From: Acaryochloris marina S15
Lineage (GTDB): Bacteria > Cyanobacteriota > Cyanobacteriia > Thermosynechococcales > Thermosynechococcaceae
Assembly (NCBI RefSeq): GCF_018336915.1
Contig: NZ_CP064925.1
Span: forward strand, 90,001 to 122,000
DNA length: 32,000 nucleotides
Direction: 5' to 3'
The first letter of the stretch is position 1, and every line of letters begins with the position of its first letter. This document shows, piece by piece, positions 8,491-23,886 of this stretch. The notes beneath the pieces are model-generated. The model saw nothing but the letters and a program-made list of their open reading frames with translations. It was not told where the DNA came from and did not search any database. The position numbers and the translations under genes are program-made.

Positions 8491-8907
8491 TTAGCCTTCC
8501 AGATGCTTCAAGTAATCATCGACAGCGGCTTGATGTGCCTCATAAAGTTTTGGGTTTGCTTCGAGATGCTGTGCCATTGAGATTTTCTTGGATGCTTCAA
8601 CGGCAGCTATGAAGTCTACTTTTCTGACATAGGGACCGAGCTTCTTGACCAATGGGTTGGAGCCGACCCAGACAGCGGTAGTCATGGGGTCAATATCAGG
8701 CTCTACGCTCTGGATGTCATAGCCCAGTTCGCGACAAGCCTCTACCAGTTCGTGCTGATAAAGTCTCCTCCGATTACCAGGTTCAATCAGTTCTTTGCGG
8801 TAGAACCTCTTGAATTCCTCAGCCTCATCGACTGGATCATCAGCTTGGGAACGCATGAACCCTTGAGTGACTTGTTGCCAAAGTCTGGACAAGAAAGTTT
8901 TAAGCAT
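8491..8907 (-). CDS. degenerate paralogue of the relaxase N-terminus (138 aa)
   Basis: DIDPMTTAVWVGSNPLVKKLGPYVRKVDF and ISMAQHLEANPKLYEAHQAAV align to DIDRMSTAVWVGSNAIVQKLGTYVKREDF and VSMALHLEGDNRLFDAHMEAV of the relaxase. The DNA word TTGGAGCCGACCCAGACAGC is shared at 8327-8346 and 8657-8676. The YY motifs and the SAPKS segment are missing. Confidence 0.6.
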   Translation of the reverse strand: MLKTFLSRLWQQVTQGFMRSQADDPVDEAEEFKRFYRKELIEPGNRRRLYQHELVEACRELGYDIQSVEPDIDPMTTAVWVGSNPLVKKLGPYVRKVDFIAAVEASKKISMAQHLEANPKLYEAHQAAVDDYLKHLEG

Positions 8908-8970
8908 GGGAATACCTGCATGAATTTTTAAAAAGCGATTCCATCGACCACGGATGTGATCGTTCTCGTG

Positions 8971-9073
8971 AAAACTACAGAGATGCTACTGAGTACTACA
9001 GAGCGGAGTTACAAAACAACTACGGTTGTACTACGTGGTGTTACGAAAATGTTTCTGAATGTACTACGAAAAT
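8971..9073 (+). promoter_or_regulatory. iteron cluster; candidate parC-like centromere and/or part of oriT
   Basis: ACTAC starts at 8974, 8995, 9019, 9030 and 9063, plus a TTACG variant at 9041, giving spacings of about 11 or 22 nt. Longer words are each repeated twice: ACTACAGAG, GTACTACG and TACGAAAAT. The cluster lies between the relaxase operon and the ParM-like gene. Confidence 0.45.
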
Positions 9074-9223
9074 TTAGGGTCAGCCCGATCTGGGGATTTT
9101 CCGTTCCGGTGCCTCGGAGTGGTGATGGGTGTGGGAGCCTCAGCGACCCTCCAGAACCTCTTGAATCTGCCCTCAAAGTAGCACCATCTCTAGGATCCTT
9201 GCAAATAGGGCTTTCGAGTACCT

Positions 9224-9238
9224 AAACGACCCCCAATC
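9224..9238 (+). repeat. 15-mer AAACGACCCCCAATC, copy 1
   Basis: Exact second copy at 13502-13516. Both lie 60-80 nt upstream of the first gene of an apparent operon. Confidence 0.5.
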
Positions 9239-9260
9239 GACCCCTAAAAACGGCAATTTT

Positions 9261-9287
9261 GGGCGGGGGTATATTACCTTGTCTAAC
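9261..9287 (+). promoter_or_regulatory. conserved promoter/operator motif, copy a (GGGCGGGGGTATATTACCTTGTCTAAC)
   Basis: Member of a six-copy, same-orientation family. The TATATT hexamer lies about 30 nt upstream of the ATG at 9304. Confidence 0.55.
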
Positions 9288-9303
9288 TCAAGAGTTTTTC
9301 AAG

Positions 9304-10428
9304 ATGACTACAAAAATATTTTTGACGGTCGATGTCGGTGCAAGTTTGACCAAAGCCTTCTTGCAAATTGCAGCAGATGGCAAGCTTCCGATCGAGAAAT
9401 GCATCACCCAACCCTCTGCTGTTCTCAGAACAACTGAGAGCTTCTATGAGGAGATGGACCACGATAACTCTGCTCACAGTTCCCTCCTTTGCTATGGGGG
9501 GATGTACTGGCAGACGGGCCAGATTGCCGAATCCAATCTCAGGCAGACCAACACGGACCAGCACAAGCACCCGGAAGCGATTGCCAAGGTGCTGTCGATT
9601 GCGGGGTATGCCATTTCCAAGGCTGGCAACGGAGCTGAGATGTATTTGGACTTGCTGCTGCCGAAGAGTGAGGAGCCGAGCTTTACCCAGATGAAGCGAG
9701 ATTTGGCGAAGTACGTCAGCAAGTTTTGGTATGGGTCGAAGCAACTGACCTGTGCGCCGAAGTTTGTGAGGGTCTTACCTGAGAGTGCGGGGATTGTCTC
9801 GCATGTCCAGACCTATCCCTCGATCATTCTGATGTTTGGTCACAAGGACTTTACTCTGACGAAGATCAAGGATCAGCATAGTGGCTTGGCCTACATCCAG
9901 ACATGGGCAGGTCGAGGTTCGTTGATGATTCAGCGTCATATGAGCTGGACCCCCTCGAATGAGCTGACAGGTGCCAAGCTGGTGTTTTCACAAGGAACAG
10001 GTCAAAAAGGGCTTGAAAAGGCATTTGGGGATGAGGCTGGCCCTGTCGTGGCTTCCTTGCGCCAAGCCAGAGAACTGTACTGGGTGAATCTCCAGCAGCA
10101 ACTGAATAGTGACATTGATGTGGTGCAGGCCAAGCGCATCTATGTCGCGGGTGGTGGAGCGCCTGCCTGGTCCAAGCAACTCAAGGAATCCTTTAGCGGC
10201 AAATTAGACTTGCTCGGTTCAGTGATTCGCACCATTGGCCGAGAATTCCCAGAGTGGTCAAAGTCTCCGATGACCTACCGCCTGACGGATGCCTATCTGG
10301 TGTGGCGACAGAATGCGGATCGTCCTGAAACGCTGCAAACTCCGCCTACTCGCAGTGCCAAGACTCCTAAAACCACTAAGGCCATTAAGACAGCAAAGAG
10401 TGCAAAAGCGGAGGTGAGCAATGTCTGA
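9304..10428 (+). CDS. ParM/StbA-like actin-fold ATPase with a basic K/T/A-rich C-terminal tail
   Basis: The phosphate-1 motif FLTVDVGASLTK and the adenosine motif YVAGGGAPAW fit the actin/ParM fold. I prefer the ATG at 9304 because the upstream part of the tracked ORF is the regulatory motif. The tail reads TPPTRSAKTPKTTKAIKTAKSAKAEV. Confidence 0.6.
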   Translation: MTTKIFLTVDVGASLTKAFLQIAADGKLPIEKCITQPSAVLRTTESFYEEMDHDNSAHSSLLCYGGMYWQTGQIAESNLRQTNTDQHKHPEAIAKVLSIAGYAISKAGNGAEMYLDLLLPKSEEPSFTQMKRDLAKYVSKFWYGSKQLTCAPKFVRVLPESAGIVSHVQTYPSIILMFGHKDFTLTKIKDQHSGLAYIQTWAGRGSLMIQRHMSWTPSNELTGAKLVFSQGTGQKGLEKAFGDEAGPVVASLRQARELYWVNLQQQLNSDIDVVQAKRIYVAGGGAPAWSKQLKESFSGKLDLLGSVIRTIGREFPEWSKSPMTYRLTDAYLVWRQNADRPETLQTPPTRSAKTPKTTKAIKTAKSAKAEVSNV

Positions 10429-10828
10429 TATCTACTTCAAGGTAAAGACTCAGTGGAAACTCACCTCTGAGCGGGGGGTAATTGTCAAAACGGTTCGCAA
10501 TCACTACGGCCCTGGCCCCAGCTTCACCCGCCTATGTATGGACATTATGTTTTCGGTGCTGAAGGTACTGTCCGTAGCCATCCAAACTCGTAATCGAGCT
10601 GCGATTCAAGGAGCCATAGAGGTTTCCAAGGTTCAAGTTGAAGGCTATTACCAGATGGCTTTGGGGCTAGCTCAAGCGGAGGTGCAATTGCCCGTCATGG
10701 TTGAACCAGCACCAAATACCCCTGACGGACCATTACCAGCGGAAGTTGATGACCTTGGTGGTATATCCCCTGTGGATGAGTCACAAGTGGAATTCGAGGA
10801 ATTTGAACCGTTCGTTATGGATGACTGA
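10421..10828 (+). CDS. hypothetical protein; candidate ParR-like adaptor (by position only)
   Basis: 135-aa ORF whose start overlaps the upstream stop (ATGTCTGA), suggesting translational coupling. It has an acidic/hydrophobic C-terminus, VEFEEFEPFVMDD. Confidence 0.4.
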   Translation: MSDIYFKVKTQWKLTSERGVIVKTVRNHYGPGPSFTRLCMDIMFSVLKVLSVAIQTRNRAAIQGAIEVSKVQVEGYYQMALGLAQAEVQLPVMVEPAPNTPDGPLPAEVDDLGGISPVDESQVEFEEFEPFVMDD

Positions 10829-10881
10829 TTCAACGGGAGGGGGCATGTTCTCAAGTCCCCTCCACTGCCATAAAAACCCTC

Positions 10882-10902
10882 GGCGGTACATTCTTGTAGA
10901 CC
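10882..10902 (+). promoter_or_regulatory. conserved motif, degenerate copy f (GGCGGTACATTCTTGTAGACC)
   Basis: It shares GGCGGTA.ATT..TGT..ACC with the other copies and lies 20 nt upstream of the ATG at 10923. Confidence 0.4.
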
Positions 10903-10922
10903 AATAAATGGAGAAATAAACA

Positions 10923-11558
10923 ATGACGAATGCAACTGAACTAACCCAAACACTGGGCCTTGAGCAGAATGACCTCGACAAGCTGCTACGGGCTTGCGGG
11001 ATGAGCGAGGACGGCTATGACCTGGAAGCCCTGCAAGGTGTTCTCCAACTCAAGGCCGAAAATATTGCTGATACCTACACTCATGGCTGGTGCCTTTACA
11101 CTGCTGACACGTACAAGGTTGACCTCAAGCCCATCCATAAGGCGATTTCTGCTGAAGGGATTGAGACAGGTGATGACCTATACCACCCTCTGTTCACCCT
11201 CGTCTGTGAGCGGGTATCTGAGGAAGGGGTTGACCCCGTTGATGCGGTCAAGACCGAGTTGCAGGGCACCGATGAGCTTGAAGAAGAGGCCAGCCTCGAC
11301 GACATTGATCAAGTTGACGAGGGTATGAAACAGGCACTCAAGGCTGAGTCGCTTAGGACTGCCCGCCGAGTCGCCAGGAATGCTCACAAAACATCAGATC
11401 GGGTCGTGGCTGCTGCCCACCAGTTCCACATGAAGCAACTACGCCATGACCTCAAACAGGTCTTTGCCGAGGAATGGGCGAAGGAAGATGCCCAGGAAGC
11501 TCTTGAGGGCCAGTCGGAGCCGGGAAAGCTTTTGCCAGCCGAGGCCACGGAAGTCTAG
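10923..11558 (+). CDS. hypothetical acidic protein
   Basis: 211-aa ORF with an ATG start and the conserved motif upstream. No family recognised. Confidence 0.5.
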   Translation: MTNATELTQTLGLEQNDLDKLLRACGMSEDGYDLEALQGVLQLKAENIADTYTHGWCLYTADTYKVDLKPIHKAISAEGIETGDDLYHPLFTLVCERVSEEGVDPVDAVKTELQGTDELEEEASLDDIDQVDEGMKQALKAESLRTARRVARNAHKTSDRVVAAAHQFHMKQLRHDLKQVFAEEWAKEDAQEALEGQSEPGKLLPAEATEV

Positions 11559-11566
11559 AACGGCAG

Positions 11567-11884
11567 GTGCTGCTGGAGATGATGAACAGCCAATTCCAGG
11601 TGTGGGCGATGCAATCGAGAGAGGCCATCGCCACTAGAGAGCGGGCAATGATCCTCGCAGACCAGGAAGCCTTACGCGAAGCTGCCAAGAAGCGCAGAGA
11701 GTATGAGTACCGCATGGCACTGCTAGGCGATGTCAGCTACTGGGGCTGGCTGGTGGTGCTAGTCACCCTTCTCGCTGGGTTTTGTGGCTGGTGGCTGCGA
11801 GGAACCATCGCCCCAAGTTCGGCAAATAACAGTGGCGGTATATTACCTGTCACCAGTCAGCCAAATTCACAGGAGGTACATTAA
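11567..11884 (+). CDS. hypothetical single-pass membrane protein
   Basis: GTG at 11567 or ATG at 11579. One clear transmembrane segment (WGWLVVLVTLLAGFCGWWL). The 3' tail overlaps motif copy b. Confidence 0.45.
   Translation: MLLEMMNSQFQVWAMQSREAIATRERAMILADQEALREAAKKRREYEYRMALLGDVSYWGWLVVLVTLLAGFCGWWLRGTIAPSSANNSGGILPVTSQPNSQEVH
11831..11854 (+). promoter_or_regulatory. conserved motif, copy b (AGTGGCGGTATATTACCTGTCACC)
   Basis: As in copy a, CGGCAA lies exactly 13 nt upstream of TATATT. Confidence 0.55.
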
Positions 11885-11910
11885 TCCGTTACCTCCGACT
11901 AAGCAAATCA

Positions 11911-11935
11911 GGGCGGCGGTATATTATCCGTCACC
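11911..11935 (+). promoter_or_regulatory. conserved motif, copy c (GGGCGGCGGTATATTATCCGTCACC)
   Basis: It lies 80 nt downstream of copy b and 31 nt upstream of the ATG at 11966. Confidence 0.55.
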
Positions 11936-11965
11936 TTCAAACCATCTCATTAAGGAAAGAAAATT

Positions 11966-12478
11966 ATGCTTACCCAAGATAGACCCACTCAACCAAAACC
12001 TGAACTGTGGGTTGAGTCTCCATCCTCAAGTCAACTTTTTCTCAAACGCCTGATCCTCGTGAAGGCCATTGTTACCCCCTTGTGGAAAGACGAAGCCCGT
12101 CAACAGCTCCAATCGCAAGCTGACCAACTGGATGAACAGCTAGGCCAACTGGATGCCCAAGTTCAACAAATGGTTGGGGAGCTGAGCCAGCATACTGTCC
12201 AAATCCATCCAGAGGGCAGCTCCATTGCCCAGACCCAGACTCAAATCCAAGGTATCCAGGCCCAGGCCAATGAGCGTAAGGGCGAACTGCTGGAGCAAAA
12301 GACTCAGGTCTTGCAACAACTGGAGCAGATCGAAACTTTGGAGTTGGGCGAGGAAGTTGAGCAAGGCCAGGTCGATAACTTCTTCTATGCCAAGCAAGGC
12401 GACCATCTGATTCGCAAGATGCAGGTTGAGGTTGTGATCCGCGACGGCGTGATTGAAGAGATTCGGGGGGAGCTGTAA
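11966..12478 (+). CDS. coiled-coil protein, YlqD-like
   Basis: 170 aa. The N-terminal beta-like LILVKAIVTPLWKDEA, the Q-rich coiled coil, and the C-terminal KMQVEVVIRDGVIEEIRGEL resemble the YlqD family as I recall it. The family name is unverified. Confidence 0.5.
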   Translation: MLTQDRPTQPKPELWVESPSSSQLFLKRLILVKAIVTPLWKDEARQQLQSQADQLDEQLGQLDAQVQQMVGELSQHTVQIHPEGSSIAQTQTQIQGIQAQANERKGELLEQKTQVLQQLEQIETLELGEEVEQGQVDNFFYAKQGDHLIRKMQVEVVIRDGVIEEIRGEL

Positions 12479-12498
12479 TTCCTGCCTGCCTATTTCAA

Positions 12499-12524
12499 GG
12501 GAGGGTGGCATATTATTTTGCCCC
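12499..12524 (+). promoter_or_regulatory. conserved motif, copy d (GGGAGGGTGGCATATTATTTTGCCCC)
   Basis: Variant with a CATATT hexamer, 43 nt upstream of copy e. Confidence 0.45.
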
Positions 12525-12541
12525 TTCCCAACTCATCAACT

Positions 12542-12570
12542 GAGGGTAGTGGCATATTACTTTGTCACCC
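12542..12570 (+). promoter_or_regulatory. conserved motif, copy e (GAGGGTAGTGGCATATTACTTTGTCACCC)
   Basis: It lies 28 nt upstream of the ATG at 12598, which has an AGGAGA Shine-Dalgarno. Confidence 0.55.
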
Positions 12571-12597
12571 ACTCCACCAAAACTCAGGAGAAGACAT

Positions 12598-13023
12598 ATG
12601 TTAACTGAATTGAGTACAAGGACCGTCCCCAGACAACCCACAATCTTGGAAGAGTTGGGTTCAACGCTCAAGGTTGTTCTAGGTGCAATGTCTGTGAGCT
12701 GTGTTGTATTTGGCTTTCTAGCGGTTTCGCCTTATTTGATTGATGCCAAATGTTCTCGGCCTGGGTATACGCCCGTTACCCTAGCGCAGTGTTTACCAGA
12801 GTCTGAAGTCAAGTCCACGATTTGGGAGGCAAGAATCCCTACACCAATGGGAGGTTTCTATTTGGCTAAAGGAGAACCCATTGCCCAGGTATTTCCTCGG
12901 CTTTTCTCCCTGTGGCTTTTGACCCTTCCTACGGTGGTCGCTACTCATTCTCTAGGACGCTTCGTTTTTGTGAAGCTGGCATTATCTGCCGCTCAATCGC
13001 ATGAATCACGAGATCGTAAATGA
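12598..13023 (+). CDS. hypothetical membrane protein
   Basis: The ATG at 12598 has AGGAGA 5 nt upstream. Two or three hydrophobic segments are present. The longer tracked ORF start would run through motif copy e. Confidence 0.5.
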   Translation: MLTELSTRTVPRQPTILEELGSTLKVVLGAMSVSCVVFGFLAVSPYLIDAKCSRPGYTPVTLAQCLPESEVKSTIWEARIPTPMGGFYLAKGEPIAQVFPRLFSLWLLTLPTVVATHSLGRFVFVKLALSAAQSHESRDRK

Positions 13024-13033
13024 GGGACATCAA

Positions 13034-13435
13034 ATGACTGACCTACCCCCCACAGATGAAACCTTGAAAACAGAATCACTCTCGCCTTCCAGGGAAAGAC
13101 TCAAGCAGCGCTTGTGGATGCTGTTTGTTTGGTTCCCATTGGCGCTGCTAGTAGCTGGGATGATATTCACTTTTGTTGAAGCACCTGATTCCTGTAAGCA
13201 ATCGTTAGCCTGCTTCACAAGCTACACCCTCTCATCCGTGCAGCGAGGTCTAGGGCCAATTGTCGATCCAGTGGGGACGCTACTTTACGCTCCCGGTGTA
13301 GTAGCAATCCCATTAATCCTAGTAGTTGCCTATGTGTACTACTTCGTATTTACGACCATTTTGCAAGTGCTGTATGCCTTGCTTGAGGTTGTGATTGTTC
13401 TGCAAACGAGAGGGAGACAGGACGATACGGGGTGA
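13034..13435 (+). CDS. hypothetical membrane protein
   Basis: The ATG at 13034 is preceded by GAGGGA; an alternative ATG lies at 13001. Several hydrophobic helices are present (LWMLFVWFPLALLVAGMIF, VVAIPLILVVAYVYYFVF). Confidence 0.5.
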   Translation: MTDLPPTDETLKTESLSPSRERLKQRLWMLFVWFPLALLVAGMIFTFVEAPDSCKQSLACFTSYTLSSVQRGLGPIVDPVGTLLYAPGVVAIPLILVVAYVYYFVFTTILQVLYALLEVVIVLQTRGRQDDTG

Positions 13436-13501
13436 TCGCAAATCCATATCAATGACAACTACCTCCATACCACCCCCAGACTTCACACCTAACCACAATA
13501 A

Positions 13502-13516
13502 AAACGACCCCCAATC
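13502..13516 (+). repeat. 15-mer AAACGACCCCCAATC, copy 2
   Basis: Exact copy of 9224-9238, 60 nt upstream of the ATG at 13576. Confidence 0.5.
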
Positions 13517-13575
13517 CTCTGAATCAAGGAGGTCGTCAAGTTCGTTTCTCCTCCAATTATAACGAGGTCACCACA

Positions 13576-13791
13576 ATGACGACTAACCCTTTTTTCGACT
13601 ACTTCGAGCAATCCTGGGTCAACCACCAGACCGACCACGGCCAGCACCCAGACCCATGCACGGGACTTCCATCAGACCAGATCCAAGACCGAGTTTCGTC
13701 CTGGCTGGCTGAGTTCAATCTGCTGATACTGTCTGAGTCTCAGATAGCTGTGAGCATTCGGGCAACAATACGCCGGAGTTACAGGTGGTAA
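13576..13791 (+). CDS. small hypothetical protein (71 aa), first gene of the unknown cluster
   Basis: ATG start with GAGG upstream. Its stop is 2 nt from the next start. Confidence 0.4.
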   Translation: MTTNPFFDYFEQSWVNHQTDHGQHPDPCTGLPSDQIQDRVSSWLAEFNLLILSESQIAVSIRATIRRSYRW

Positions 13792-13793
13792 CG

Positions 13794-14984
13794 ATGAACA
13801 AAACAACATGGTCCATTACGGTTGATCCAGAAACTAGGATTGACCCCAATCGCTGGTTTGATCTAAAGCCTTGCCATTCTGACGAGGAAGTTGAAAGTGT
13901 TGCCCAGAGTCTACATGAACGATCTGCTCACCCTGACGACTGTGACCCTGAAGGTGATGCAGTCATTATGGAGCTTTTGGCTGATGAATACTGGCGTCGT
14001 CGGATGCGCCCGATCTATTTGCAGAAAGGAGAGCTGGGCAATTGCTCACTGGCAATTCGGGTGGAGCTAAGACTAGGAGAATTTGGCACGATCCACTGTG
14101 GCTCGAATGTTTTCCAGCACGAGCATATTCCCCAAGCCCTGCAATTCATTGAAGCACTTGAGGGTCAGGATCTGGAGTACAGCGAGTACTGGATGGCAAT
14201 CGCTGAGCATTCTCAGCCACTGCCACAAGCACCGACGCTTGAGGATTTCTACCAGTATGTTTTGCAGCGATGCCAGCTAGCAATCGAGGACTATCACGAA
14301 CTCCTTAGCTTCTATGTCACGGATCGGAGTGGCTACCTGGAGATTGTCCACGGGCGAGAACCTAGGAGCCTTGAGGGTAAGTATGTCTGGGCACGGTTTG
14401 AAGCTTCTGAATTCCCTGGTGATTGTGAGCGCTGCATCAAGCCACAGAAGGAGGGGTTTGAAACACCTGAAGAAGATCAGCGAGGGATTGAAGATTATTC
14501 CTGCCAGGTTGCACGTCATCTATTTGATGGTTTTCAAGATATCCAGCGTCGTAGGACTGATCGGGGTATGTACTCCCAGAGTCCTCAATCCCTTGCTAAA
14601 CGCCAATCTACTGCTCCCGATCCAGTAACCCAATCCAAGCAGAGAGTCGAGGAACCCATCTTCGACCAGTTAGCACAAATCATTGCTGCCTTTGGAAGTC
14701 CGATGGCTGATGCCGAGGGCGGCACCCTATATGACGATGGTACGTACCTCTTTATGAGGAGTGAGCATGAAATCAATGTTGCCCGGAGTGCTGAGGGTGA
14801 TTATGTCCATCACATTTATCGGAATCTCTGTCTTTTTGACCATCAGGATATTCGGGGTGTTGGACACAACTACTTTTTTGACCACACCACTACTGAGGAT
14901 CGGGCTTACTTTGCTCGATTAGCTGAATCTATTGAAGGCAGGGCACAGGAAGATGCTGAGCCTGAGTTGAATCCTGTCGTTTAA
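13794..14984 (+). CDS. hypothetical protein (about 396 aa)
   Basis: The ATG at 13794 has AGGTGG 5 nt upstream. Long ORF with balanced composition. No recognisable motif. Confidence 0.55.
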   Translation: MNKTTWSITVDPETRIDPNRWFDLKPCHSDEEVESVAQSLHERSAHPDDCDPEGDAVIMELLADEYWRRRMRPIYLQKGELGNCSLAIRVELRLGEFGTIHCGSNVFQHEHIPQALQFIEALEGQDLEYSEYWMAIAEHSQPLPQAPTLEDFYQYVLQRCQLAIEDYHELLSFYVTDRSGYLEIVHGREPRSLEGKYVWARFEASEFPGDCERCIKPQKEGFETPEEDQRGIEDYSCQVARHLFDGFQDIQRRRTDRGMYSQSPQSLAKRQSTAPDPVTQSKQRVEEPIFDQLAQIIAAFGSPMADAEGGTLYDDGTYLFMRSEHEINVARSAEGDYVHHIYRNLCLFDHQDIRGVGHNYFFDHTTTEDRAYFARLAESIEGRAQEDAEPELNPVV

Positions 14985-15117
14985 TTTTTATTTTCTTTAG
15001 GGAATTTGTATTACCTAGGCACTTCAAATCCTGCACAGAAGCTGTAATGCCTAGATAGATTTCCCACTTCATACCTATCACTTGCACTGAAAACACCCGC
15101 CTACGGAGGTGAATCCC

Positions 15118-18100
15118 ATGACTACTGCAACCGTCCTACAGCCAATTCCCTTCAGTACTGATAGGCCGATTATCTTCAATGTTGAGCTTGAAGAAATCGA
15201 CCTAGATCCATCCTTCCCCTACACTGGCTTTTTGTCCGTCACCCAACATTGGCATCATCCGCTCGAAGTGGAGCTGTGGCCGCAACCGGAGGGGATGAGT
15301 GAGCCTGAGCTATTGTCTCAAGGCTTCTACAAGACCAATATTGTCTTGAGCGGCGCAAGGCTGTATGTCCATCACACTCAAGTCGCTGAATTTGTCGAAG
15401 CTCAAGACCTGTTTGACCATTCCAACCCTAACCCAGAGGCTAAGACCGTACACTACACCGCTCCCTTTGAGATGCGGACATTGACGCCAGAGATATTCTT
15501 GTCATTCTTCGGTAATGAGAAGCCTAAGCCATCCAGCTCCAAGGCAATCCACCCGCTTCTGGTAGAGCCATCCAAGCAAATCCTAGAGAGGGTCGAAAGA
15601 CTTGATCATTTGCGCGAGTCAGGCTTTTTAGCCGAAGTCTTCAGACCGCACGAAGTTCTGAGGGTCTCTCTTTCCCACCTCGACCATACGCAGTTGCCGT
15701 GCTGCCTGGAGGTCGAGGCCCAGTCACCATCTCGCATCCTTATCTTTAGCGGTGAGCCATTCTTCCAACTCAATGGCATCGAGACGACAATGGATATCCC
15801 GCATCTGTGGAATGTCGTCAAGGGTTTGCAGATGTGCTTTTGGGATTTTGAATATTTCGAATCGTTTAGCAGCTTGGATATCATCTATCTGCTTTGCCGA
15901 TATTTCAATTGCATTCCTCTCTCTGGTCTTGCCAGTGGTTTTGATTCCCAGTTGGATCTGTCTGGTAATTGGGAATGGTCTTGCCTGCCGGGTGCTGATT
16001 GGGATGTCTGTGCATCCCTGGTATCAGGCGAGGTGCGGTCTGAAGCTGAGCGTATCTCACAAGGTTGGAAGATTCGTGAGAAAGGAATTGAACAGGAAGT
16101 CAATCTAGAAGTCGCTCCTGTAAACGAGTCGGGTGAGGTGCAGCGATATTTGTATCTATCCGCCGAGGGGTGGGAAGAGCTGCACTCACAACAGCCCCTC
16201 GACTTGGAGGATTTGCAGTTACTGGTGGGTGTTCGGGGTCATAAGACGACTATCGAGTATTTGACTGATCGCATTTCAATGTCAGGCTTAGAAGTTGAAA
16301 TATTGATGGACGCCGAGGCCCGCACCAAAGGTCTAGAGCCATATTGCCTGGACCCGAAAACCTTTGAAGCCTTGCCGGGGAATATTCTCATTGTCACTAG
16401 AGACGAAGGGCGTATAACAGGCTTTCCTGAAGAACGTATTGAGTGGTGCTTGTCGCTAATGTGTACCAGGGGCGATTTACCTTACCACGGCACTCGGAAG
16501 ACCACTAATTATCGTCGGGGGGAGGTTTTAGCAGCTTTCCAAGGCAGACCTCAATCGCGGCTCTCCCCGTCATCAGTCCAGATTTATCACGTCACGCACA
16601 GATATCGATATGACAAGCCCTTGGATACCTGTTTCAAAAGCGACCGTCCCCTGCAAGAGCTGAAAGAAACCCTCTATTACTTGATGGGGATTGCGGCGAT
16701 CATGCTTGAAGAAAACTTGTGCGGCCCGCTCAAGTATGATGACTTATCCAGTGAATCTATCTGCTTCTTGTTGCGGCAATACTGTGACTTCGAGCTGTGC
16801 CCCTACCAGGATGGTGCGGCTGAGATTGACCTGTACTATCTCTGGGAATTTGACGAGGATGTGCAACAAACCGATCCTGCATGGGATCTGGAGCTACATC
16901 AAAAGTATGGTCGAGCTGGGGTGATTGACTGCATTGGGATGATGATGCGAGGGGAGATAGAGGGATGCATCGGTGAAGATCATCAGCTAAAGGTCAAGAG
17001 CAATCTTCCTAAGACAGCTCTACCTGAATCCTTGACTCCGATCAGCAATGGTGATGACTTCAAGGTTATCCAGGATTACCAATCTCGCTCTAGTGACGAG
17101 CAAGTTTTCGTAGATGAATATTTTGATGATTCTCCCGACATCAATGAGTTGGAATTCAGCGAACGGCTTATTGAGTCAAATAACCGACAAGATGAAGATC
17201 AGAAGAAAGATTTATTAGACTTTGTTGGTGCTATGGAAGAGCATATTAACGAGCTTCCCGCCAATGAGAGAAATGATTACGCCGATCAACTTGAACAGAT
17301 TAAGGCTGCTGATGCACTTCCAGAGTTAAAAGATAGAGTCAATCAGCTCTCTACCGATCTTTATGCCAAGTCTTTTGACACCATCCAGCATGACATTGCC
17401 ATGGTGACTGCTATCTCAGAGGGGGTTGTCTTAAAACAGCCAGAAAATCTCACTCAGCAGATCCAAGAGTTAGACGACACTCAAGGGAGTGCAACGCCTT
17501 CTGTTCCTGTCATCAAATCCACTCAGAATGTTTTCTGGATAACCCATGAGGCCAGCTATCTTAAAAGCAAGATGACCTGCGTCAAGACAACCAGGACGCA
17601 TACCCAAGCAAAGCTCGATGCCTACTACATAATCTATGAAGGCTATGATCATTACGAGATTAATGATGTTGAGCCACTGCCAGAATCTGTCTGTCACCTA
17701 CTGGTCAAATTCTTTGGCTATGAGATTTGTGAGTACGATAATTCAGCGATAGAGATAGACCTTCTCTACATTTGGCAAGGGCCAAGAGATCCTGATATTA
17801 AGGTAGGCAATAAGAGCTGGTATCTGTGGCTGAATCTGTCCCGATTTCGATGGGGCTTTTATCCCGAATTGATGGCAATCATGGAAGGTCGCCTCAATGT
17901 CGATAGACTGCCTCAATACCCTTGGAGTTCACAGCACGAGTCCGTCACTGGATGGGACTGTGGTGAGTACGTCATTGAAGTGCCGTTTTGCTCTTTCAAT
18001 AGCGAGTCGGAGGCTGGGAAGTTTGGGGAGTCCTGCTACGCCCTTGCTCCCTATGAAGAATATTGCAACCTTCTCAAGCTCCTCTACATCGATCCATACG

Positions 18101-18306
18101 GTGGTGAAGAGCGTACCCCTATTCGCAAGGATGAGGTTCAGGTCTTTCTCAGTTCATCCGTTTTTGATGCCAGGTCTGGAGATCTGCGTGATCGCGATGA
18201 ATGGGAGCTTGTCTCACTAGATGTATGGGACACCCCTAACCTCGTTATTGGCGCTCAACTTTATTGTCAAGGTCGGGAAATCAAAGGGGTGAGCCATGAA
18301 AACTAA
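15118..18306 (+). CDS. large hypothetical protein (1062 aa) with a triplicated Cys/aromatic-rich module
   Basis: The ATG at 15118 has GGAGG 8 nt upstream. Modules: ICFLLRQYCDFELCPYQDGAAEIDLYYLWEF (about 16759-16853), VCHLLVKFFGYEICEYDNSAIEIDLLYIWQG (about 17688-17780), and a weaker IIYLLCRYFNCIPLSG (about 15880-15930). Confidence 0.6.
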   Translation: MTTATVLQPIPFSTDRPIIFNVELEEIDLDPSFPYTGFLSVTQHWHHPLEVELWPQPEGMSEPELLSQGFYKTNIVLSGARLYVHHTQVAEFVEAQDLFDHSNPNPEAKTVHYTAPFEMRTLTPEIFLSFFGNEKPKPSSSKAIHPLLVEPSKQILERVERLDHLRESGFLAEVFRPHEVLRVSLSHLDHTQLPCCLEVEAQSPSRILIFSGEPFFQLNGIETTMDIPHLWNVVKGLQMCFWDFEYFESFSSLDIIYLLCRYFNCIPLSGLASGFDSQLDLSGNWEWSCLPGADWDVCASLVSGEVRSEAERISQGWKIREKGIEQEVNLEVAPVNESGEVQRYLYLSAEGWEELHSQQPLDLEDLQLLVGVRGHKTTIEYLTDRISMSGLEVEILMDAEARTKGLEPYCLDPKTFEALPGNILIVTRDEGRITGFPEERIEWCLSLMCTRGDLPYHGTRKTTNYRRGEVLAAFQGRPQSRLSPSSVQIYHVTHRYRYDKPLDTCFKSDRPLQELKETLYYLMGIAAIMLEENLCGPLKYDDLSSESICFLLRQYCDFELCPYQDGAAEIDLYYLWEFDEDVQQTDPAWDLELHQKYGRAGVIDCIGMMMRGEIEGCIGEDHQLKVKSNLPKTALPESLTPISNGDDFKVIQDYQSRSSDEQVFVDEYFDDSPDINELEFSERLIESNNRQDEDQKKDLLDFVGAMEEHINELPANERNDYADQLEQIKAADALPELKDRVNQLSTDLYAKSFDTIQHDIAMVTAISEGVVLKQPENLTQQIQELDDTQGSATPSVPVIKSTQNVFWITHEASYLKSKMTCVKTTRTHTQAKLDAYYIIYEGYDHYEINDVEPLPESVCHLLVKFFGYEICEYDNSAIEIDLLYIWQGPRDPDIKVGNKSWYLWLNLSRFRWGFYPELMAIMEGRLNVDRLPQYPWSSQHESVTGWDCGEYVIEVPFCSFNSESEAGKFGESCYALAPYEEYCNLLKLLYIDPYGGEERTPIRKDEVQVFLSSSVFDARSGDLRDRDEWELVSLDVWDTPNLVIGAQLYCQGREIKGVSHEN

Positions 18307-18925
18307 TCACACCAGCCCCAGCACCCACCAGCCCCAGCAGATAGACAAGGTATTGCTCCCCCACGAGGCTGCAGCGTTTCTGGGCCTGACCGAGGAACAA
18401 CTGATGAACGCCACTCTGCAAGGTAATTGCCCTGGTGCCTGCATTGATGGTCAGTGGCGGTTTAGTCAGCGAGGGTTAAGTAAGTATCTGTTGCAGCAGA
18501 GCAATCATGGGAATGGGATGCCTTGGCTTGATGAGCATTACGGTCCCTACTGGCTCGACGATGCCGTTGAGAGCAAGGCCAAAAAGGTTATTGAAGCCTA
18601 CAAGGGTGGGGAGCGGTATTTCCCTTTGCTTGAGATTGAAGGCGGCAACTTTGCGGGACTGGATCTAACGGGTATCGACTTTTGGGAGTCGAATCTGAAG
18701 GGTTCTAGCTTCAAGGGGGCAACACTCCAGAATGCCGTCTTTGTGGGCTGCAATTTGGAGTCCACCAGCTTTGCCGAGGCAGATCTGACGGATGCGGATT
18801 TCAGGTCTGCCTCAGTCAGGGGCAGTGACTTCAGGGGTGCAATCCTCAAGCGCACGATATTCAGGGTCAAGAACTGGCGAGGGGTGAACTTGGATGGGGC
18901 GCAGATCAGCCTTGCGAAGTTCTGA
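18296..18925 (+). CDS. excisionase/MerR-type HTH domain fused to pentapeptide repeats
   Basis: N-terminal LLPHEAAAFLGLTEEQL...IDGQWRFSQRGLSKYL fits the HTH_17 pattern. The C-terminus has about 15 pentapeptide units (NFAGLDLTGIDFWESNLKGSSFKGATLQNAVF...). The start overlaps the upstream stop by 11 nt. Confidence 0.65.
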   Translation: MKTNHTSPSTHQPQQIDKVLLPHEAAAFLGLTEEQLMNATLQGNCPGACIDGQWRFSQRGLSKYLLQQSNHGNGMPWLDEHYGPYWLDDAVESKAKKVIEAYKGGERYFPLLEIEGGNFAGLDLTGIDFWESNLKGSSFKGATLQNAVFVGCNLESTSFAEADLTDADFRSASVRGSDFRGAILKRTIFRVKNWRGVNLDGAQISLAKF

Positions 18926-18941
18926 GATTGTATTCATATTC

Positions 18942-18971
18942 TTACCAGCAGTAAAAAAATCATGCTGGTAA
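18942..18971 (+). terminator. stem-loop at the GC-to-AT composition boundary; possible terminator
   Basis: TTACCAGCA at 18942-18950 pairs perfectly with TGCTGGTAA at 18963-18971 across a 12-nt A-rich loop. There is no strong T-tract after the stem. Confidence 0.35.
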
Positions 18972-19024
18972 TCTAAATATGACATCGATTTTGGAGCTTG
19001 CTTGTGGTCTTGTTAGGTGTGAGG

Positions 19025-20392
19025 ATGCCATTTGCTCGTCGTACCAAGAAGATAAAGGTTCCTAACGGAGAAATTATAAAACCTGTAGAAAATGTGGAGG
19101 CAGCTGTATTAAACAAAAAAATGAAAGAGAAAGAATTGTCGTATGCAACTGTTTATGTCAAATGGAAATATATATGCCCAGAATGTGATGCTGAAGTCCG
19201 TCCGTATGCTATTAGACCAGAGTGTATAGTTAACCCTCGTTTTCGACTCAAATCACAAAATGATGACCCTCATAGAGAAAATTGCCCTATTCCAATAATT
19301 GTTGTACAGGATGATGAAGATATAGATGAAGACGCGTCGGAAGCAGATAATAGACCCCTTTGCGAATATCCGAATAGACTTCTGCTTGATTCTTTTGATG
19401 AAACTAGTCAAGATACTGAGATAACTTCTCAAAAAAGGAGCCAATATGATGATAGAGTTCAAAATAATTTAGATACTCCTAAAGATCGTATTGTTTACTC
19501 AATTCATGTGCTTGTTGAGTATTTTTTAGAATCAAAATGTCTAGAAGAAAATCTTTCTATTCATGGTGTGAAGGAAAATACTTATGGGACAGTATTTAAA
19601 CAAATAATTGACTTCGAAGATCCATCTCTGAGTAGGCCCAGAATTTACTACTCACAAGTTATTTATAAAAATGTAGGAATTTTCGATGATAGAATCGAAT
19701 TTTATTTAACTGATAATGGATTTGATCAGGAAAACCAACCTATCAAGAAGTCTATTGTTAAATTGAAAATATCTGATTGGGAAGAGCTTGATAGGCAAAA
19801 ATTTTTAGAAAAAATTGAAAGATTTAAATCTGGCTTGTATCTTAAGAACAAAAATAAAGCATCAGGAGAATCTAGATATCATACTTGGATCTTTTTCTTG
19901 GGGGTTTCTAGTAGTGAGAATAATTCTGAGTTTAGGCTTTTACGTGATAGTTGGAAACTGGTTGACCTATGTATTACGAATAAGTTAGACACACTACCCT
20001 ATTATCAAAGTTTTTATGAGTATTCTGAGTTATCTGGCAGTACTGTCGTTCCTATCTCTCAGCCAGAAGTTGAGCCTGAGCTAATCACAGAAATGCCTGA
20101 GCCAGTAGGGCCACCTGAAAATAAAGAATCGACTGATACAAGTCAAGATACTTCACCTGATGATGACGAATCTCAAGAAAGTGGACTAAGTGGTGAGAAG
20201 CAAAAAGAAATATCTGAAGCTATCAATCGTCAGATAACACCGTTTAGTCATGAGAAATCGCTTTTTGAAAAGCTTCAGAGTCTATCTGGTTTACTAGCAA
20301 TACTTTTAGTTTTATTTATAGCAGGATTAGCTATTAATGGTGTAATTGAAGAGAATAACCGAGATAATCAGCCCACTGAAGAAGTCAAATAG
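19025..20392 (+). CDS. hypothetical protein on an AT-rich island: Cys-cluster N-terminus, acidic low-complexity region, C-terminal membrane anchor
   Basis: 455 aa from the ATG at 19025. It has CPECDAEV...HRENCP (zinc-ribbon-like) and a C-terminal transmembrane segment LSGLLAILLVLFIAGLAINGVI. Codon and base composition differ clearly from the neighbours. Confidence 0.55.
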   Translation: MPFARRTKKIKVPNGEIIKPVENVEAAVLNKKMKEKELSYATVYVKWKYICPECDAEVRPYAIRPECIVNPRFRLKSQNDDPHRENCPIPIIVVQDDEDIDEDASEADNRPLCEYPNRLLLDSFDETSQDTEITSQKRSQYDDRVQNNLDTPKDRIVYSIHVLVEYFLESKCLEENLSIHGVKENTYGTVFKQIIDFEDPSLSRPRIYYSQVIYKNVGIFDDRIEFYLTDNGFDQENQPIKKSIVKLKISDWEELDRQKFLEKIERFKSGLYLKNKNKASGESRYHTWIFFLGVSSSENNSEFRLLRDSWKLVDLCITNKLDTLPYYQSFYEYSELSGSTVVPISQPEVEPELITEMPEPVGPPENKESTDTSQDTSPDDDESQESGLSGEKQKEISEAINRQITPFSHEKSLFEKLQSLSGLLAILLVLFIAGLAINGVIEENNRDNQPTEEVK

Positions 20393-20983: not shown

Positions 20984-21811
20984 CTAGGCCGTTCTGGCCT
21001 TTGTAGCTTGGTCACTATTTTTCTGTAATTTCTTCATGGCTTTGTTGATGATTTGTCGAATCCGTTCCCGGCTGACGCCCAACTGTTGACCAATCTCATT
21101 CAATGTCTTGGGTTCGCCATCTTCTAATCCATACCGTTGGGTAATCACATAGCGTTGTCGTTCATCTAGTAGTGACAAATAACTGGATATCTCTTCACTC
21201 TTGTTCATCAGTTCAAGACAGGTGGGTGTCGAATGTTCCGCTTCAATCAGCTCCCCCAATGTTGTGTCTTGTTGATGCCCGACCCACATATCTAAAGAGA
21301 GAACATCTTGAAGATGTTGCATGTTCTTCTTCAGTTTGTCGAGGTCAATTTCCATTGCCTTAGCAATTTCTACAAGTGTCGGTTCACGACCAAATTCCTG
21401 AGAGAGTTGTCGTCGAGTCTGTTTGATTTTGTTGCCTGTCTGCCAGTGGCATGCAGGTAGACGAATCACACGGCTATTATTCTGTATGGACCGGGTAATT
21501 CCCTGTCGAATCCACCAATAGGCATAGGTACTAAAGCGATACCCTTGTTCAGGCTCAAATTTATCAACGGCTCTACTCAATCCGATGCTGCCCTCCTGGA
21601 TCAAGTCCATGAATGGCAAGCCTCGATTCTGGTGTTTTTTAGCAATGGAGATGACCAGGCGCAGGTTGCACTCGATCATCCGTTGTTTGGCTCGGAGGTT
21701 TCCAGCTTTGGCTTGTCTGGCAAGTTGGATTTCTTCTTCGTGGGATAGAAGGGGGTAGCGACCGATTTCTTTGAGATAAGTACCCGTACTGTCCGTATGA
21801 GTGACCATCAT
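20984..21811 (-). CDS. sigma-70 family RNA polymerase sigma factor (RpoD-like, short form), paralogue 1
   Basis: [16 protein letters not shown] (region 1.2), [28 protein letters not shown] and [16 protein letters not shown] (region 2), and [18 protein letters not shown] (region 4.2). The ATGATG start has GGAGGG 4 nt upstream. Confidence 0.9.
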
Positions 21812-22089
21812 CAAACCCTCCAAACATCGTTGATAGAGGAATACCCCGAAATGCCTGGTATGGGAATGGTCTTGTGTTATTTCTTAAGAAATGAGAGAGC
21901 TGAATAACAGGAAAAAACTGATAGTGTGTTGTGGTTCCTGCCAGTCATATTTGTGAGTTAGCGTTGCGAATTGATAAGCCATACTACCTAGTCTAACGAA
22001 TTCCTAGTGTCTTTGATGGGTTAGCTCAAGTCCTTCCCGTGTCTATTTCCTGATGTTTCTGGGTTGCTGTAAATACGGGGAATTCAATC

Positions 22090-22124
22090 TCATGTTTGCT
22101 CCCCAAAATTTCCCGAAAGCATTG
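22090..22124 (+). repeat. intergenic motif copy B (TCATGTTTGCTCCCCAAAATTTCCCGAAAGCATTG)
   Basis: Similar to 20825-20860, with GGGGAATT at 22077-22084. It lies 54-100 nt upstream of the pentapeptide gene. Confidence 0.4.
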
Positions 22125-22177
22125 CTATTATTCATGAAATGGTCGTTTGGGCTTCAGAGTATTCTTGAGAACTAACG

Positions 22178-22807
22178 ATGGCTAATCAGGAACAGATAGC
22201 CTTGCTGAGTCAGGGTGTTGAAGTTTGGAATGAGTGGAGAAAAGATAACCTCAAGGTATCGATTAACCTCAGCAAAGCCAGCCTGACTGGGATGGATTTA
22301 CATGGGGCTAACCTTCATAAAGCGATCTTGATCGGGGCTAATCTCACGGGTGCTAATCTGACTCGGGCTAACCTTTGTGAAGTCAGCCTCTGGAAAGCCA
22401 ATCTTCGTGGTGCCATTCTGAGTAAAGCTAATCTTAAAGACGCCAACCTCATTGAGGCTGACTTGTGTACGGCTAGTCTCTGGAAAGCTAATCTCTATAA
22501 CGTCAACCTCTATAAAGCCGATCTCCGTGGTGCCAACCTTTGTAGAGCTTATCTTTACAAAGCTAATCTCAGTGAGACAGACCTCAGTCAGGCCAGCCTT
22601 TGTGAAGTCTACCTATGTGAAGCTAATCTCTATGAAGCGGATCTTTCTGGTGCGGATCTTGAAGGGGCTAATTTTGAGGGAGCAGATCTTCTCAATATCC
22701 GTTTTGATCCTGAAACCAATTGGTCATCAATTGGTAGTTGGGACAATGCTAGAGATATACCGCAGGAGTGGAAGGATGAGAGCAGCCAAGGAAATGGAGT
22801 TCAGTAA
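22178..22807 (+). CDS. pentapeptide-repeat protein
   Basis: About 28 consecutive A(N/D)L..-type pentapeptides (GANLHKAILIGANLTGANLTRANL...). Confidence 0.9.
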   Translation: MANQEQIALLSQGVEVWNEWRKDNLKVSINLSKASLTGMDLHGANLHKAILIGANLTGANLTRANLCEVSLWKANLRGAILSKANLKDANLIEADLCTASLWKANLYNVNLYKADLRGANLCRAYLYKANLSETDLSQASLCEVYLCEANLYEADLSGADLEGANFEGADLLNIRFDPETNWSSIGSWDNARDIPQEWKDESSQGNGVQ

Positions 22808-23076
22808 AGGTTTGATTGATCGATTGTTCTGGATGGCGGTTCTGGATTTGCTTTAGATTCAAAACTATTGACTGACTCGTTGTGATTGTAGATGTGTGCT
22901 GTCCATCCCTTGGGATCATTTATAGGGTGCGGGATTTGGCTGGAGTTGACTTTAGCGCTTGTGAGGCTTTGGTGCAAATTCCCCCTTTAGGTAGCTGCTA
23001 TTCTTCCCAGATGAGTTTGTCAATCCGATGATTGGCCTGAGAATCATCGCAAGGTACTTGGATTCCTGGATGTTAC

Positions 23077-23886
23077 CTAAGCAGATTGGGCGTACTTTTT
23101 TAATTGTTGGAAAGCCCTTTTCTCAATTTTGCGAACACCCTCCCGACTCATGCCGATTATCTTACCAATCTCTACTAGAGTTTTAGGCTGACCATCTTCC
23201 AGACCGAATCGTTGGCCAATGATGAATTGTTGCTGCTCACTCAGGTGCTCCATGAGTTTGGACAATTCATCCTTATTCATCAGATTTTCAAAGTATTTTT
23301 GGGAGGAATGATCCTTGGCAACGAGTTCGCCTAATGTGCCTCCCTGGTTTTCACTCACGAATTTATCTAAGGAGATAACCTCTTTAGGAAGTTGGAGCTG
23401 TTCCTGTATGTGAGTTGGGTCTATATCCATTGCATGAGCGACTTCAGCAAGAGATGGTTGACGCTCATATTGTTGGTTGAGTTGGTAGTAGGTATGTTTA
23501 ATTTTGCTGTTGAGCTGATTGAGGTGAATAGGTAGGCGAATCATTTTGGCCTTATTGTGCAATGCCCGTGTGATTCCTTGCCGAATCCACCAGTAGGCGT
23601 AGGTGCTGAACCGATAACCTTGCTTTAGGTCAAATTTCTCTACGGCTCGACTAAGCCCGATGTTCCCTTCCTGGATTAAGTCTAATAAAGGTAAGCCCCG
23701 ATTCTGGTGTTTCTTAGCAATAGAGATGACTAGTCGCAGGTTACACTCAATCATCCGTTGTTTAGCCCGTAGACTGCCCGCTTTCACTTGCCGAGCGAGG
23801 TTAACTTCTTCTTCAGAAGATAGAAGAGGATAGCGTCCTATCTCATTTAGATAGGAATGGAGACTGTTTTGTGTGGTGGCCATCAT
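23077..23886 (-). CDS. sigma-70 family RNA polymerase sigma factor (RpoD-like, short form), paralogue 2
   Basis: Shares an identical 27-aa run, [27 protein letters not shown], and [16 protein letters not shown] with paralogue 1. Region 4.2 differs ([18 protein letters not shown]). The ATGATG start has GAGGA upstream. Confidence 0.9.

Follow-up and report, generated by a model that had tools for sequence, protein, structure and literature searches.

What four tightly packed genes with unfamiliar products are doing on a cyanobacterial plasmid, and whether they form a system at all, is the question raised by positions 13,576 to 18,925 of the DNA analysed here. The whole analysed stretch, called the window, comprises 32,000 nucleotides (nt) of Acaryochloris marina S15 (contig NZ_CP064925.1, positions 90,001 to 122,000 of the forward strand), and its four genes, here named A, B, C and D, had been proposed in a first-pass annotation made from the letters alone as a candidate novel system of the defence or conflict kind. 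We conclude with high confidence that they are the distal, variable end of a co-directional gene array that diverges from the origin of transfer (oriT) and the MobF relaxase gene in a family of Acaryochloris MOBF (TrwC-type) megaplasmids. What stands of the earlier reading is a set of orphan proteins in a setting of plasmid conflict or maintenance; what is not supported is a novel defence system made up of four genes. We would class the locus among the accessory gene arrays that lie next to oriT on plasmids, as a new form restricted to one lineage and with three orphan families, namely A, B and a repeated unit of C that we call R. Coordinates of all features are given in Table 1.

The four-gene block is not a unit of inheritance, because its presence/absence pattern varies across loci. 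Genes A, B, C and D occur jointly only in four close plasmids, those of the window, pMB01, CCMEE 5410 and locus L011 (the relaxases of the last three are 83–88% identical to that of the window, and B and C are frameshifted in L011, whose contig coverage is only 3x). In other Acaryochloris MOBF plasmids each gene is found without the others, so the synteny expected of a discrete four-gene system fails. Plasmids pREB1 and pREB3 carry A and a 286-amino acid (aa) R protein and lack B and D; pREB6 and pREB8 have A alone, and pREB7 has A with unrelated genes. In pMB03 a D-like gene comes straight after a frameshifted A; L008 has a short B and neither A nor R, and pREB4 encodes a 1213-aa R protein and has no A, B or D. 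Locus L009 has an R protein and then a 175-aa protein whose C-terminal domain is A-like, and L001 has A, two small open reading frames (ORFs) and C, with no B. A with its leader is the constant element, and the segment after A is a variable slot in which B, C and D come and go. Gene A lies on the oriT-divergent side of mobF, 4–8.3 kb away, in all ten loci examined, and R genes lie on that side in eight of the nine loci with enough flanking sequence.

The plasmid location that had been claimed is borne out by positions 13000–19000, which are 92% identical to pMB01 of Acaryochloris sp. 'Moss Beach'. Insertion sequence (IS) elements and a foreign gene had been taken as the telling context; the decisive feature is instead the position on the oriT-divergent side of the MobF relaxase. 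The window has a MOBF backbone, with a TrwC-type relaxase (its pMB01 orthologue is annotated mobF) and an adjacent conserved oriT block, and PLSDB assigns the related pREB plasmids to the type MOBF/MPF_T. The 138-aa gene next to the relaxase is a paralogue of the relaxase N-terminal segment (about 33% identity to MobF residues 37–141 by tblastn). The gap that follows is a putative oriT; its 25-nt block GCCTCGGAGTGGTGATGGGTGTGGG is invariant in seven Acaryochloris MOBF plasmids whose relaxases are 72–88% identical. Inside this block, at 9127–9134 on the plus strand, lies a nic-like core, GGGTGT/GG, which resembles the F nic site (F TraI site TTTGCGTGGGGTGT/GGTGCTTT).

From oriT to position 20392 all genes are on the plus strand and make up an array of about 11 kb and about 11 genes, with A through D and the following gene E at its distal end. 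A–D are approximately the seventh to tenth genes from oriT and lie 4.4–9.8 kb from the invariant block. The same array order is found in pMB01, CCMEE 5410, L008, L011, pREB1, pREB3 and pMB03, and arrays with more divergent heads are present in pREB4, pREB6, pREB7, pREB8 and L009. The first gene of the array has only weak direct matches to actin-like families and is homologous (E 2e-29) to a pREB7 gene annotated ParM/StbA by NCBI.

Table 1. Features of the window (coordinates in nt from its first position; aa, amino acids; HMM, hidden Markov model; HTH, helix-turn-helix; TM, transmembrane).
Feature	Position	Strand	Remarks
MobF relaxase	2653–8475	−	1940 aa; Pfam TrwC 1.3e-62, AAA_30 1.1e-51, C-terminal DUF3854 7.9e-42
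Relaxosome-side accessory gene	8491–8907	−	138 aa; weak TrwC/MobF matches
Putative oriT	8908–9258		at least five TACTAC(A/G) direct repeats and the invariant block (9111–9135)
Proximal conserved array	9259–13435	+	ParM-like, 135 aa, 211 aa, YlqD, two membrane proteins
ParM-type actin-like gene	9259–10428	+	weak direct matches: ALP_N 0.003, FcmB actin-like 0.005
YlqD gene	11966–12478	+	Pfam YlqD 2.7e-38
Two membrane-protein genes	12562–13023, 13001–13435	+	predicted TM segments
Leader of A	13436–13575	+	about 140 nt; nucleotide-level conservation in 9–10 plasmids (alignment)
Gene A	13576–13791	+	71 aa; constant member, invariant core HQTDxGQHPDPCxGL
Gene B	13785–14984 (GTG) or 13794–14984 (first ATG)	+	399 aa from GTG, 396 aa from ATG; acidic, pI 4.7; optional
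Gene C	15109–18306 (GTG) or 15118–18306 (ATG)	+	1065 aa from GTG, 1062 aa from ATG; acidic mosaic protein
R-domain copy 1	16582–16956	+	C residues 492–616 (numbered from GTG 15109); iterated HMM E 2e-50
R-unit 2	17506–18303	+	C residues 800–1065 (R domain 808–928 and tail); HMM E 1e-55
Gene D	18296–18925	+	209 aa; HTH (about residues 24–68) and about five pentapeptide coils (about 95–209)
Stem-loop after D	18934–18982	+	9-bp inner stem 18942–18950/18963–18971; window-specific sequence
Gene E	18998–20392	+	464 aa, GC 0.35; PADLOC PDLC03992 (PD-λ-4_B) 4.3e-8; variable cargo slot after D
Sigma-70 family gene	20984–21823	−	Pfam; convergent, ends the array in the window, pMB01, CCMEE 5410, pMB03 and pREB6

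All four genes are genuine protein-coding genes under purifying selection, since against the pMB01 and CCMEE 5410 orthologues the ratio of nonsynonymous to synonymous substitution rates (dN/dS) is 0.25–0.40 for A, 0.17 for B, 0.16–0.23 for C and 0.09–0.10 for D. These values are in the same range as those of the flanking backbone genes, and they rule out gene-wide positive selection. The lengths and junctions first given for the four plus-strand ORFs are correct with ATG starts (2 nt between A and B, 133 nt between B and C, and an 11-nt overlap of C and D). The ATG starts of B and C are better supported than the GTG starts; good Shine-Dalgarno sequences precede both, and that of C is preferred because GGAGG sits 9 nt upstream of ATG 15118 and because pMB01 has a stop at codon 3 of the GTG-extended frame.

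The products of A–D are all predicted to be soluble, TM and toxin signatures are absent from them, and they contain no NTPase, nuclease, TIR or other effector-type domain; B (net charge −35, isoelectric point (pI) 4.7) and C (net charge about −90, pI 4.6) are acidic along their entire length. The first-pass annotation recognised none of the first three products, and we likewise found nothing meaningful for A, B or C in Pfam, PADLOC, NCBIfam or PHROGs, nor for C among PDB sequences; for the standalone relatives and the neighbours in other loci, too, these four HMM libraries gave nothing meaningful. The cluster is not a known defence system by the PADLOC models, none of which matches A–D: PADLOC-DB 2.0 gave zero matches for A, B and D and one spurious 13-bit match for C, and only neighbouring gene E fits a model (PD-λ-4_B). 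By tblastn, A is present in 11 PLSDB plasmids and C or R in six, every one from Acaryochloris.

Gene C encodes a mosaic of shuffled modules around a repeated orphan R unit. Its modules are an N-terminal one (to about residue 323), a middle one (324–480), the first R copy, an acidic linker, and the second R copy with a beta-rich tail; the R domain, about 130 aa long, was found twice by iterated HMM search. A word-indexed search of 5.8 billion proteins returned two relatives of C; HMMER, run exhaustively with a profile against 1.84 billion representative proteins, returned 18, and all the named ones are from Acaryochloris. The relatives, 250–1213 aa in length, contain the R domain once or twice and differ by insertions and deletions of whole modules. 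Independent recombination is seen for the N-terminal and middle modules, for the acidic linker and for a 'DPRF..ELV..YPY' repeat that pMB01 shares with protein P0012, and the R domain with its tail of about 130 aa also occurs as standalone proteins of 250–270 aa (P0017, P0018 and WP_261891693 of pREC1). A possible third, divergent R copy in the N-terminal module (residues 186–326) was considered and is not established (hhalign probability 3%; a shared C-x-LL...DL-x3-W motif only). A 1.27-kb IS (15353–16626 of locus L002) interrupts C in pMB01; its frameshifted transposase is on the opposite strand, and the downstream fragment of C has an extra C-terminal region of about 340 aa with three of the 'DPRF..ELV..YPY' repeats, also found in P0012.

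The AlphaFold2 model of the R unit, made from a 22-sequence alignment, is confident (predicted local distance difference test score (pLDDT) 83.7, predicted template modelling score (pTM) 0.73) and has an alpha/beta N-domain and a beta-rich C-domain. Foldseek gave no significant match to it in PDB (best E 0.2) or BFVD (best E 0.05), and the template modelling scores are 0.17 or less among the 45 best-ranked matches per library; as modelled, the R unit has a fold with no detectable relative that is apparently new. Likeness to any solved structure, which should include ArdA, KlcA/ArdB, PsiB, Ocr and ArdC, is excluded by this empty search. A pattern scan of 185,579 species genomes (GTDB) found the R unit in A. 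marina plasmids only, and scans of the JGI metagenomes and IMG/VR found none. The B family has seven relatives, the named ones all from Acaryochloris, and the C-terminal module of B (about 110 aa) is also fused to another, unrelated N-terminus that, judged by eye, appears to span the membrane (P0008 and P0009; alignment A4). Protein P0008 comes from A. marina NIES-2412 and P0009 from an ENA assembly.

In being very large, modular and encoded by a conjugative element, with modules that are shuffled and also stand alone, C is like the polyvalent proteins of conjugative elements and phages, which Iyer et al. (J Bacteriol 2017) reportedly defined by recognisable enzymatic or anti-restriction domains (methyltransferase, helicase, ArdC, peptidase and others). 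It differs from them in that C has no recognisable domain in HMM libraries, among PDB sequences or in the Foldseek search of the R unit, and in that its modules are orphan.

Gene D had been described as an HTH fused to a pentapeptide solenoid, and this description holds; the further label of a DNA-mimic type is putative. D passes the Pfam pentapeptide model PF00805 (64.8 bits against a gathering threshold of 20.2), and its HTH is of the excisionase/MerR type, sub-threshold for HTH_17 in the window (PF12728, 18.6 bits against a cut-off of 27; PHROG excisionase 8e-4). In the pMB03 D-like protein, a positional homologue with 29% identity, HTH_17 scores 27.5 bits against 27, and the HTH there weakly resembles the defence-system HTH mad1. 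The C-terminal half of D shares the right-handed pentapeptide solenoid with Qnr, MfpA, McbG and AlbG; D differs from those proteins in having only about five coils and an N-terminal HTH that they lack. Its matches among PDB sequences are generic pentapeptide proteins, QnrB1 and MfpA among them, and it falls below all NCBIfam Qnr/MfpA equivalog models (22–31 bits against cut-offs of 240–500). Pentapeptide proteins are plentiful and functionally diverse in cyanobacteria, and those of the Qnr/MfpA type act on gyrase. We note that a plasmid-borne gyrB lies directly 3' of D in pMB01 (20646–22586 of L002) and apparently also in L011 (13503–14447), the latter being probable because the L011 sequence downstream of D aligns with pMB01; CCMEE 5410 has no gene after D. 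An exact 14-nt tandem duplication, CACCAGCCCCAGCA, is present in the first codons of D (18310–18339; two copies 16 nt apart), and elsewhere in the window two minus-strand sigma-70 genes (20984–23886) flank another 209-aa pentapeptide-repeat gene (22178–22807).

The AT-rich gene downstream of D, here E, is as foreign in composition as was first thought (GC 0.35 against 0.49), and its product carries a CxxC...H..C motif at the N-terminal end and a TM segment at the C-terminal end. In pMB03 the D-like gene is likewise followed by AT-rich genes (GC 0.32–0.37), the first of which (12699–13879 of locus L020) is 25% identical to E and matches PD-λ-4_B at 3.9e-12. That the D–E adjacency recurs at such low identity points either to two functionally paired genes or to a hotspot for cargo after D. 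The current name of PD-λ-4 is Avs8, and it is counted as a system of the STAND NTPase kind (Vassallo 2022; bioRxiv 10.64898/2026.01.04.697583). E and its pMB03 counterpart match the B-component PADLOC model of that system, but its defining STAND NTPase component is not adjacent (no STAND or P-loop NTPase lies beside E, whose neighbours are D and the sigma factor), and E is outside the four-gene cluster. That D belongs functionally with E and not with A–C, as an HTH-pentapeptide regulator beside an AT-rich PD-λ-4_B-like effector at the array end, is an unlikely arrangement, and one compatible with the explanation of A–C given below. The repeated adjacency at only 29% and 25% identity, the AT-richness and PD-λ-4_B matches (4e-8 and 4e-12) of both E-like genes and the weakly mad1-like HTH in pMB03 argue for it; against it are the gyrB gene that follows D in pMB01 (apparently also in L011), the lack of any gene after D in CCMEE 5410, the 11-nt C/D overlap, which suggests translational coupling of D with C, and the missing STAND NTPase partner.

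When A–D might be expressed in a recipient depends on the polarity of transfer, which we assumed by analogy with F and R388: the relaxase gene enters last and the nic core is on the plus strand. On that assumption the transferred strand (T-strand) would be the plus strand and 9.2–20.4 kb the leading side. In leading regions, anti-defence, single-stranded DNA-binding protein (SSB), methyltransferase and toxin–antitoxin families have the orientation needed to be transcribed from the T-strand (Samuel et al., Nature 2024, PMC11541004). A–D resemble those anti-defence islands in lying within the first approximately 30 ORFs on the presumed leading side, a side assigned here by analogy, where uncharacterised fast-turnover genes are enriched. 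They differ in that A–D run away from oriT, an orientation opposite to that of the islands if the assumed polarity is right, and in that known anti-defence, SSB, methyltransferase, SOS-inhibitor and toxin–antitoxin genes are absent from 9259–20392 by Pfam, NCBIfam, PHROGs and PADLOC. As to an Frpo/ssi-like single-strand promoter, what the A leader shows is a 9-bp conserved hairpin only, with a fold of z −1.1. An array that runs away from oriT would be sense on the T-strand and hence not transcribable from incoming single-stranded DNA, so early transcription from the incoming strand is, on this analogy, unlikely.

Plasmid R388 (IncW, MOBF) was inspected directly: its stbABC genes diverge from oriT, and its ssb and ardC genes point to oriT, co-directional with trwABC. 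Like the window, it has a TrwC relaxase operon and a maintenance-type operon diverging from a short oriT, and the array described here likewise opens with a ParM-like gene of the segregation type and, in the manner of stbABC, leads away from oriT. The differences are that stbABC has three genes as against an array of about 11 kb and about 11 genes, that ssb, ardC and other establishment genes of R388 face oriT, no such genes being found here, and that none of A–D is homologous to any R388 protein.

Our preferred explanation, held tentatively and at low confidence, is that A, B and C are plasmid-serving, non-enzymatic binding proteins in establishment or inter-element conflict. They would act by binding rather than by catalysis, serving the plasmid and not the host, either while the plasmid establishes itself after conjugative entry or when it comes into conflict with resident defences or its siblings. 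Module shuffling would diversify the specificity of C, A could be a conserved small partner or adaptor, and D may be a DNA-binding regulator or DNA-directed accessory. Expression of A–D would follow, and require, second-strand synthesis, since the array leads away from oriT in the same way as stbABC of R388. This reading is favoured by soluble proteins (B and C strongly acidic) without catalytic motifs, by a conserved small gene that precedes variable mosaics, by strict linkage to the oriT/relaxase backbone, by purifying selection on sequence combined with free module shuffling, by a C that is dispensable in culture, and by a host genus in which each cell keeps many sibling MOBF plasmids (PMC9324425); the related MOBF plasmids of an Acaryochloris cell can number as many as nine. 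The bolder proposal that A and the R-unit mosaics, optionally with B and D, are a new class of plasmid conflict effectors on a new fold, diversified by shuffling, deployed from the oriT-proximal array and neutralising recipient defences or excluding or inhibiting sibling MOBF plasmids, we consider rather improbable; if true, this class would be a cyanobacterial counterpart of anti-defence and fertility-inhibition functions, homologous to none known.

The remaining readings differ in whom the genes would serve and when. A pure maintenance role, with A–D extending a ParM-like partition or stb-type operon and acting in positioning, copy control or donor relaxosome coupling and in no conflict, is unlikely. 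The genes are indeed co-directional and contiguous with the ParM-like gene at the array head, oriented as in R388 stbABC and under purifying selection, and a recurring GGTATATTAYC motif upstream of the ParM-like and YlqD genes suggests common control of the proximal array; yet variable presence and shuffling of C modules among siblings that share the ParM-like/YlqD core would be unusual for housekeeping maintenance, and C is interrupted by an IS in pMB01, a stably maintained plasmid. That IS also weighs against the idea from which the question arose, a discrete anti-phage or anti-mobile-element defence system benefiting the host, with the giant protein as sensor or effector and D as nucleic-acid-directed component. 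Tight co-directional packing, unrecognisable proteins, the PD-λ-4_B-like gene adjoining D and a standalone R gene beside a CRISPR-Cas locus in pREC1 are what such a system might show. No PADLOC model matches A–D, they have neither effector domains nor TM or toxin signatures, their joint inheritance is limited to one plasmid lineage, and they are tied to the relaxase/oriT backbone and not to defence islands, all of which leaves host defence with little probability.

A classical leading-region anti-defence island, whose proteins would be made from the incoming single strand within minutes and block restriction, CRISPR or SOS, appears no more probable than host defence. The cluster does lie within about the first 7–11 ORFs from the putative oriT, in a zone enriched in anti-defence genes (PMC11541004), B and C are acidic, and D has a pentapeptide solenoid, the fold that the DNA mimics Qnr and MfpA also employ. 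However, the genes point away from oriT, and a plus T-strand would be sense and not template; because of this orientation the cluster would not be an Frpo-type island expressed from the incoming single strand. No ArdA, ArdC, KlcA, PsiB, SSB, anti-CRISPR or methyltransferase homologue was found by sequence, the R-unit model (the sole confident model) has no structural match, and no long Frpo-like hairpin was seen beyond the 9-bp stem. Least probable of all is a polyimmunity or polymorphic toxin–immunity array in which R units are immunity-type domains protecting against the toxins of competitors. Varied fusion of acidic, soluble domains without catalytic signature is characteristic of polyimmunity loci, and the R unit is standalone, duplicated and fused in changing combinations, in proteins of just that acidic and soluble kind; but neither toxins nor secretion-associated families (RHS, LXG, PAAR, CdiA) nor known immunity families were detected in or near the cluster, and the linkage is to oriT and relaxase, not to secretion loci.

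Several points weigh against the plasmid-serving binding role that we prefer. The proposed function is deduced from position, composition, modularity and missing catalytic signatures, and the transfer polarity, and with it the 'leading' side, rests on the analogy with F and R388 and an 8-nt nic-like core. C is dispensable in pMB01 under culture, and gene-wide dN/dS gives no sign of positive selection. The acidity of B and C is moderate (about −8 net charge per 100 aa), far below that of Ocr- or ArdA-type DNA mimics. The AlphaFold model of B is unusable (pLDDT 40.7). Finally, the standalone R gene of pREC1 (locus L022, NZ_AP026076.1, 12004–12780) is away from mobF, the only such case; it sits beside a tyrosine-recombinase (integrase) fragment and downstream, at a distance of about 5 kb, of a type I-E CRISPR-Cas locus that is complete.

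Almost nothing is known of how cyanobacterial megaplasmids transfer, establish themselves and coexist. The analysis defines a conserved oriT block of the Acaryochloris MOBF plasmid family and its adjoining gene array, and links three families of orphan proteins (A, B and the R unit) with the oriT-divergent position; for one of these families a fold without detectable relative is confidently predicted. Should these prove to be establishment, anti-defence or inter-plasmid factors, the 'leading-region' concept would reach a new phylum, with new proteins and a different gene orientation; if not, a false 'novel defence system' candidate is removed and the locus boundaries are corrected.

The leader of A was first remarked on for a shared 15-mer, and the window does contain two copies of AAACGACCCCCAATC and no more (9224 and 13502), where chance would give 0.08. 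In the leader it spans the 5' arm of a hairpin at 13504–13536 (arms ACGACCCCC / GGAGGTCGT; pattern ACGACCyCC(N12-14)GGAGGTCGT), in which one compensatory change is found, in CCMEE 5410. Farther along, at 13555–13567, the invariant AATTATAACGAGG / AATTATAnCGAGG contains the Shine-Dalgarno sequence. The second copy of the 15-mer is just upstream of the ParM-like gene, and the only exact copy elsewhere is upstream of the pREB3 ParM-like gene; with that single outside copy, and as a conserved hairpin arm at the A leader, the 15-mer was rejected as a widespread operator. The leader was also rejected as a known RNA element, there being no Rfam match in the window and a fold no stabler than that of shuffled sequence (z −1.1). 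It may act as an attenuator of transcription, as a translational element or as a terminator for the opposite strand.

The stem-loop reported after D exists (dG −15.8 kcal/mol, z −3.2) but is not a conserved feature. Homology with the other plasmids ends exactly at the D stop codon, so the stem-loop belongs to the window-specific cargo and is excluded as terminator of a conserved operon. Scans for sigma-70 promoters and terminators gave sites no commoner than in shuffled sequence. Three copies of the motif GGTATATTAYC, which includes a good −10 hexamer, lie upstream of the ParM-like and YlqD genes, where 0.5 would be expected. A repeat of about 38 nt ending in GGCGGTATATTACC is found upstream of the same two genes (9242–9279, 11811–11848 and 11892–11929), and a related GTGGCATATTAYTTTG pair (12505–12520 and 12549–12564) is upstream of the first membrane-protein gene; these repeats are possible shared promoters, operators or parC-like sites.

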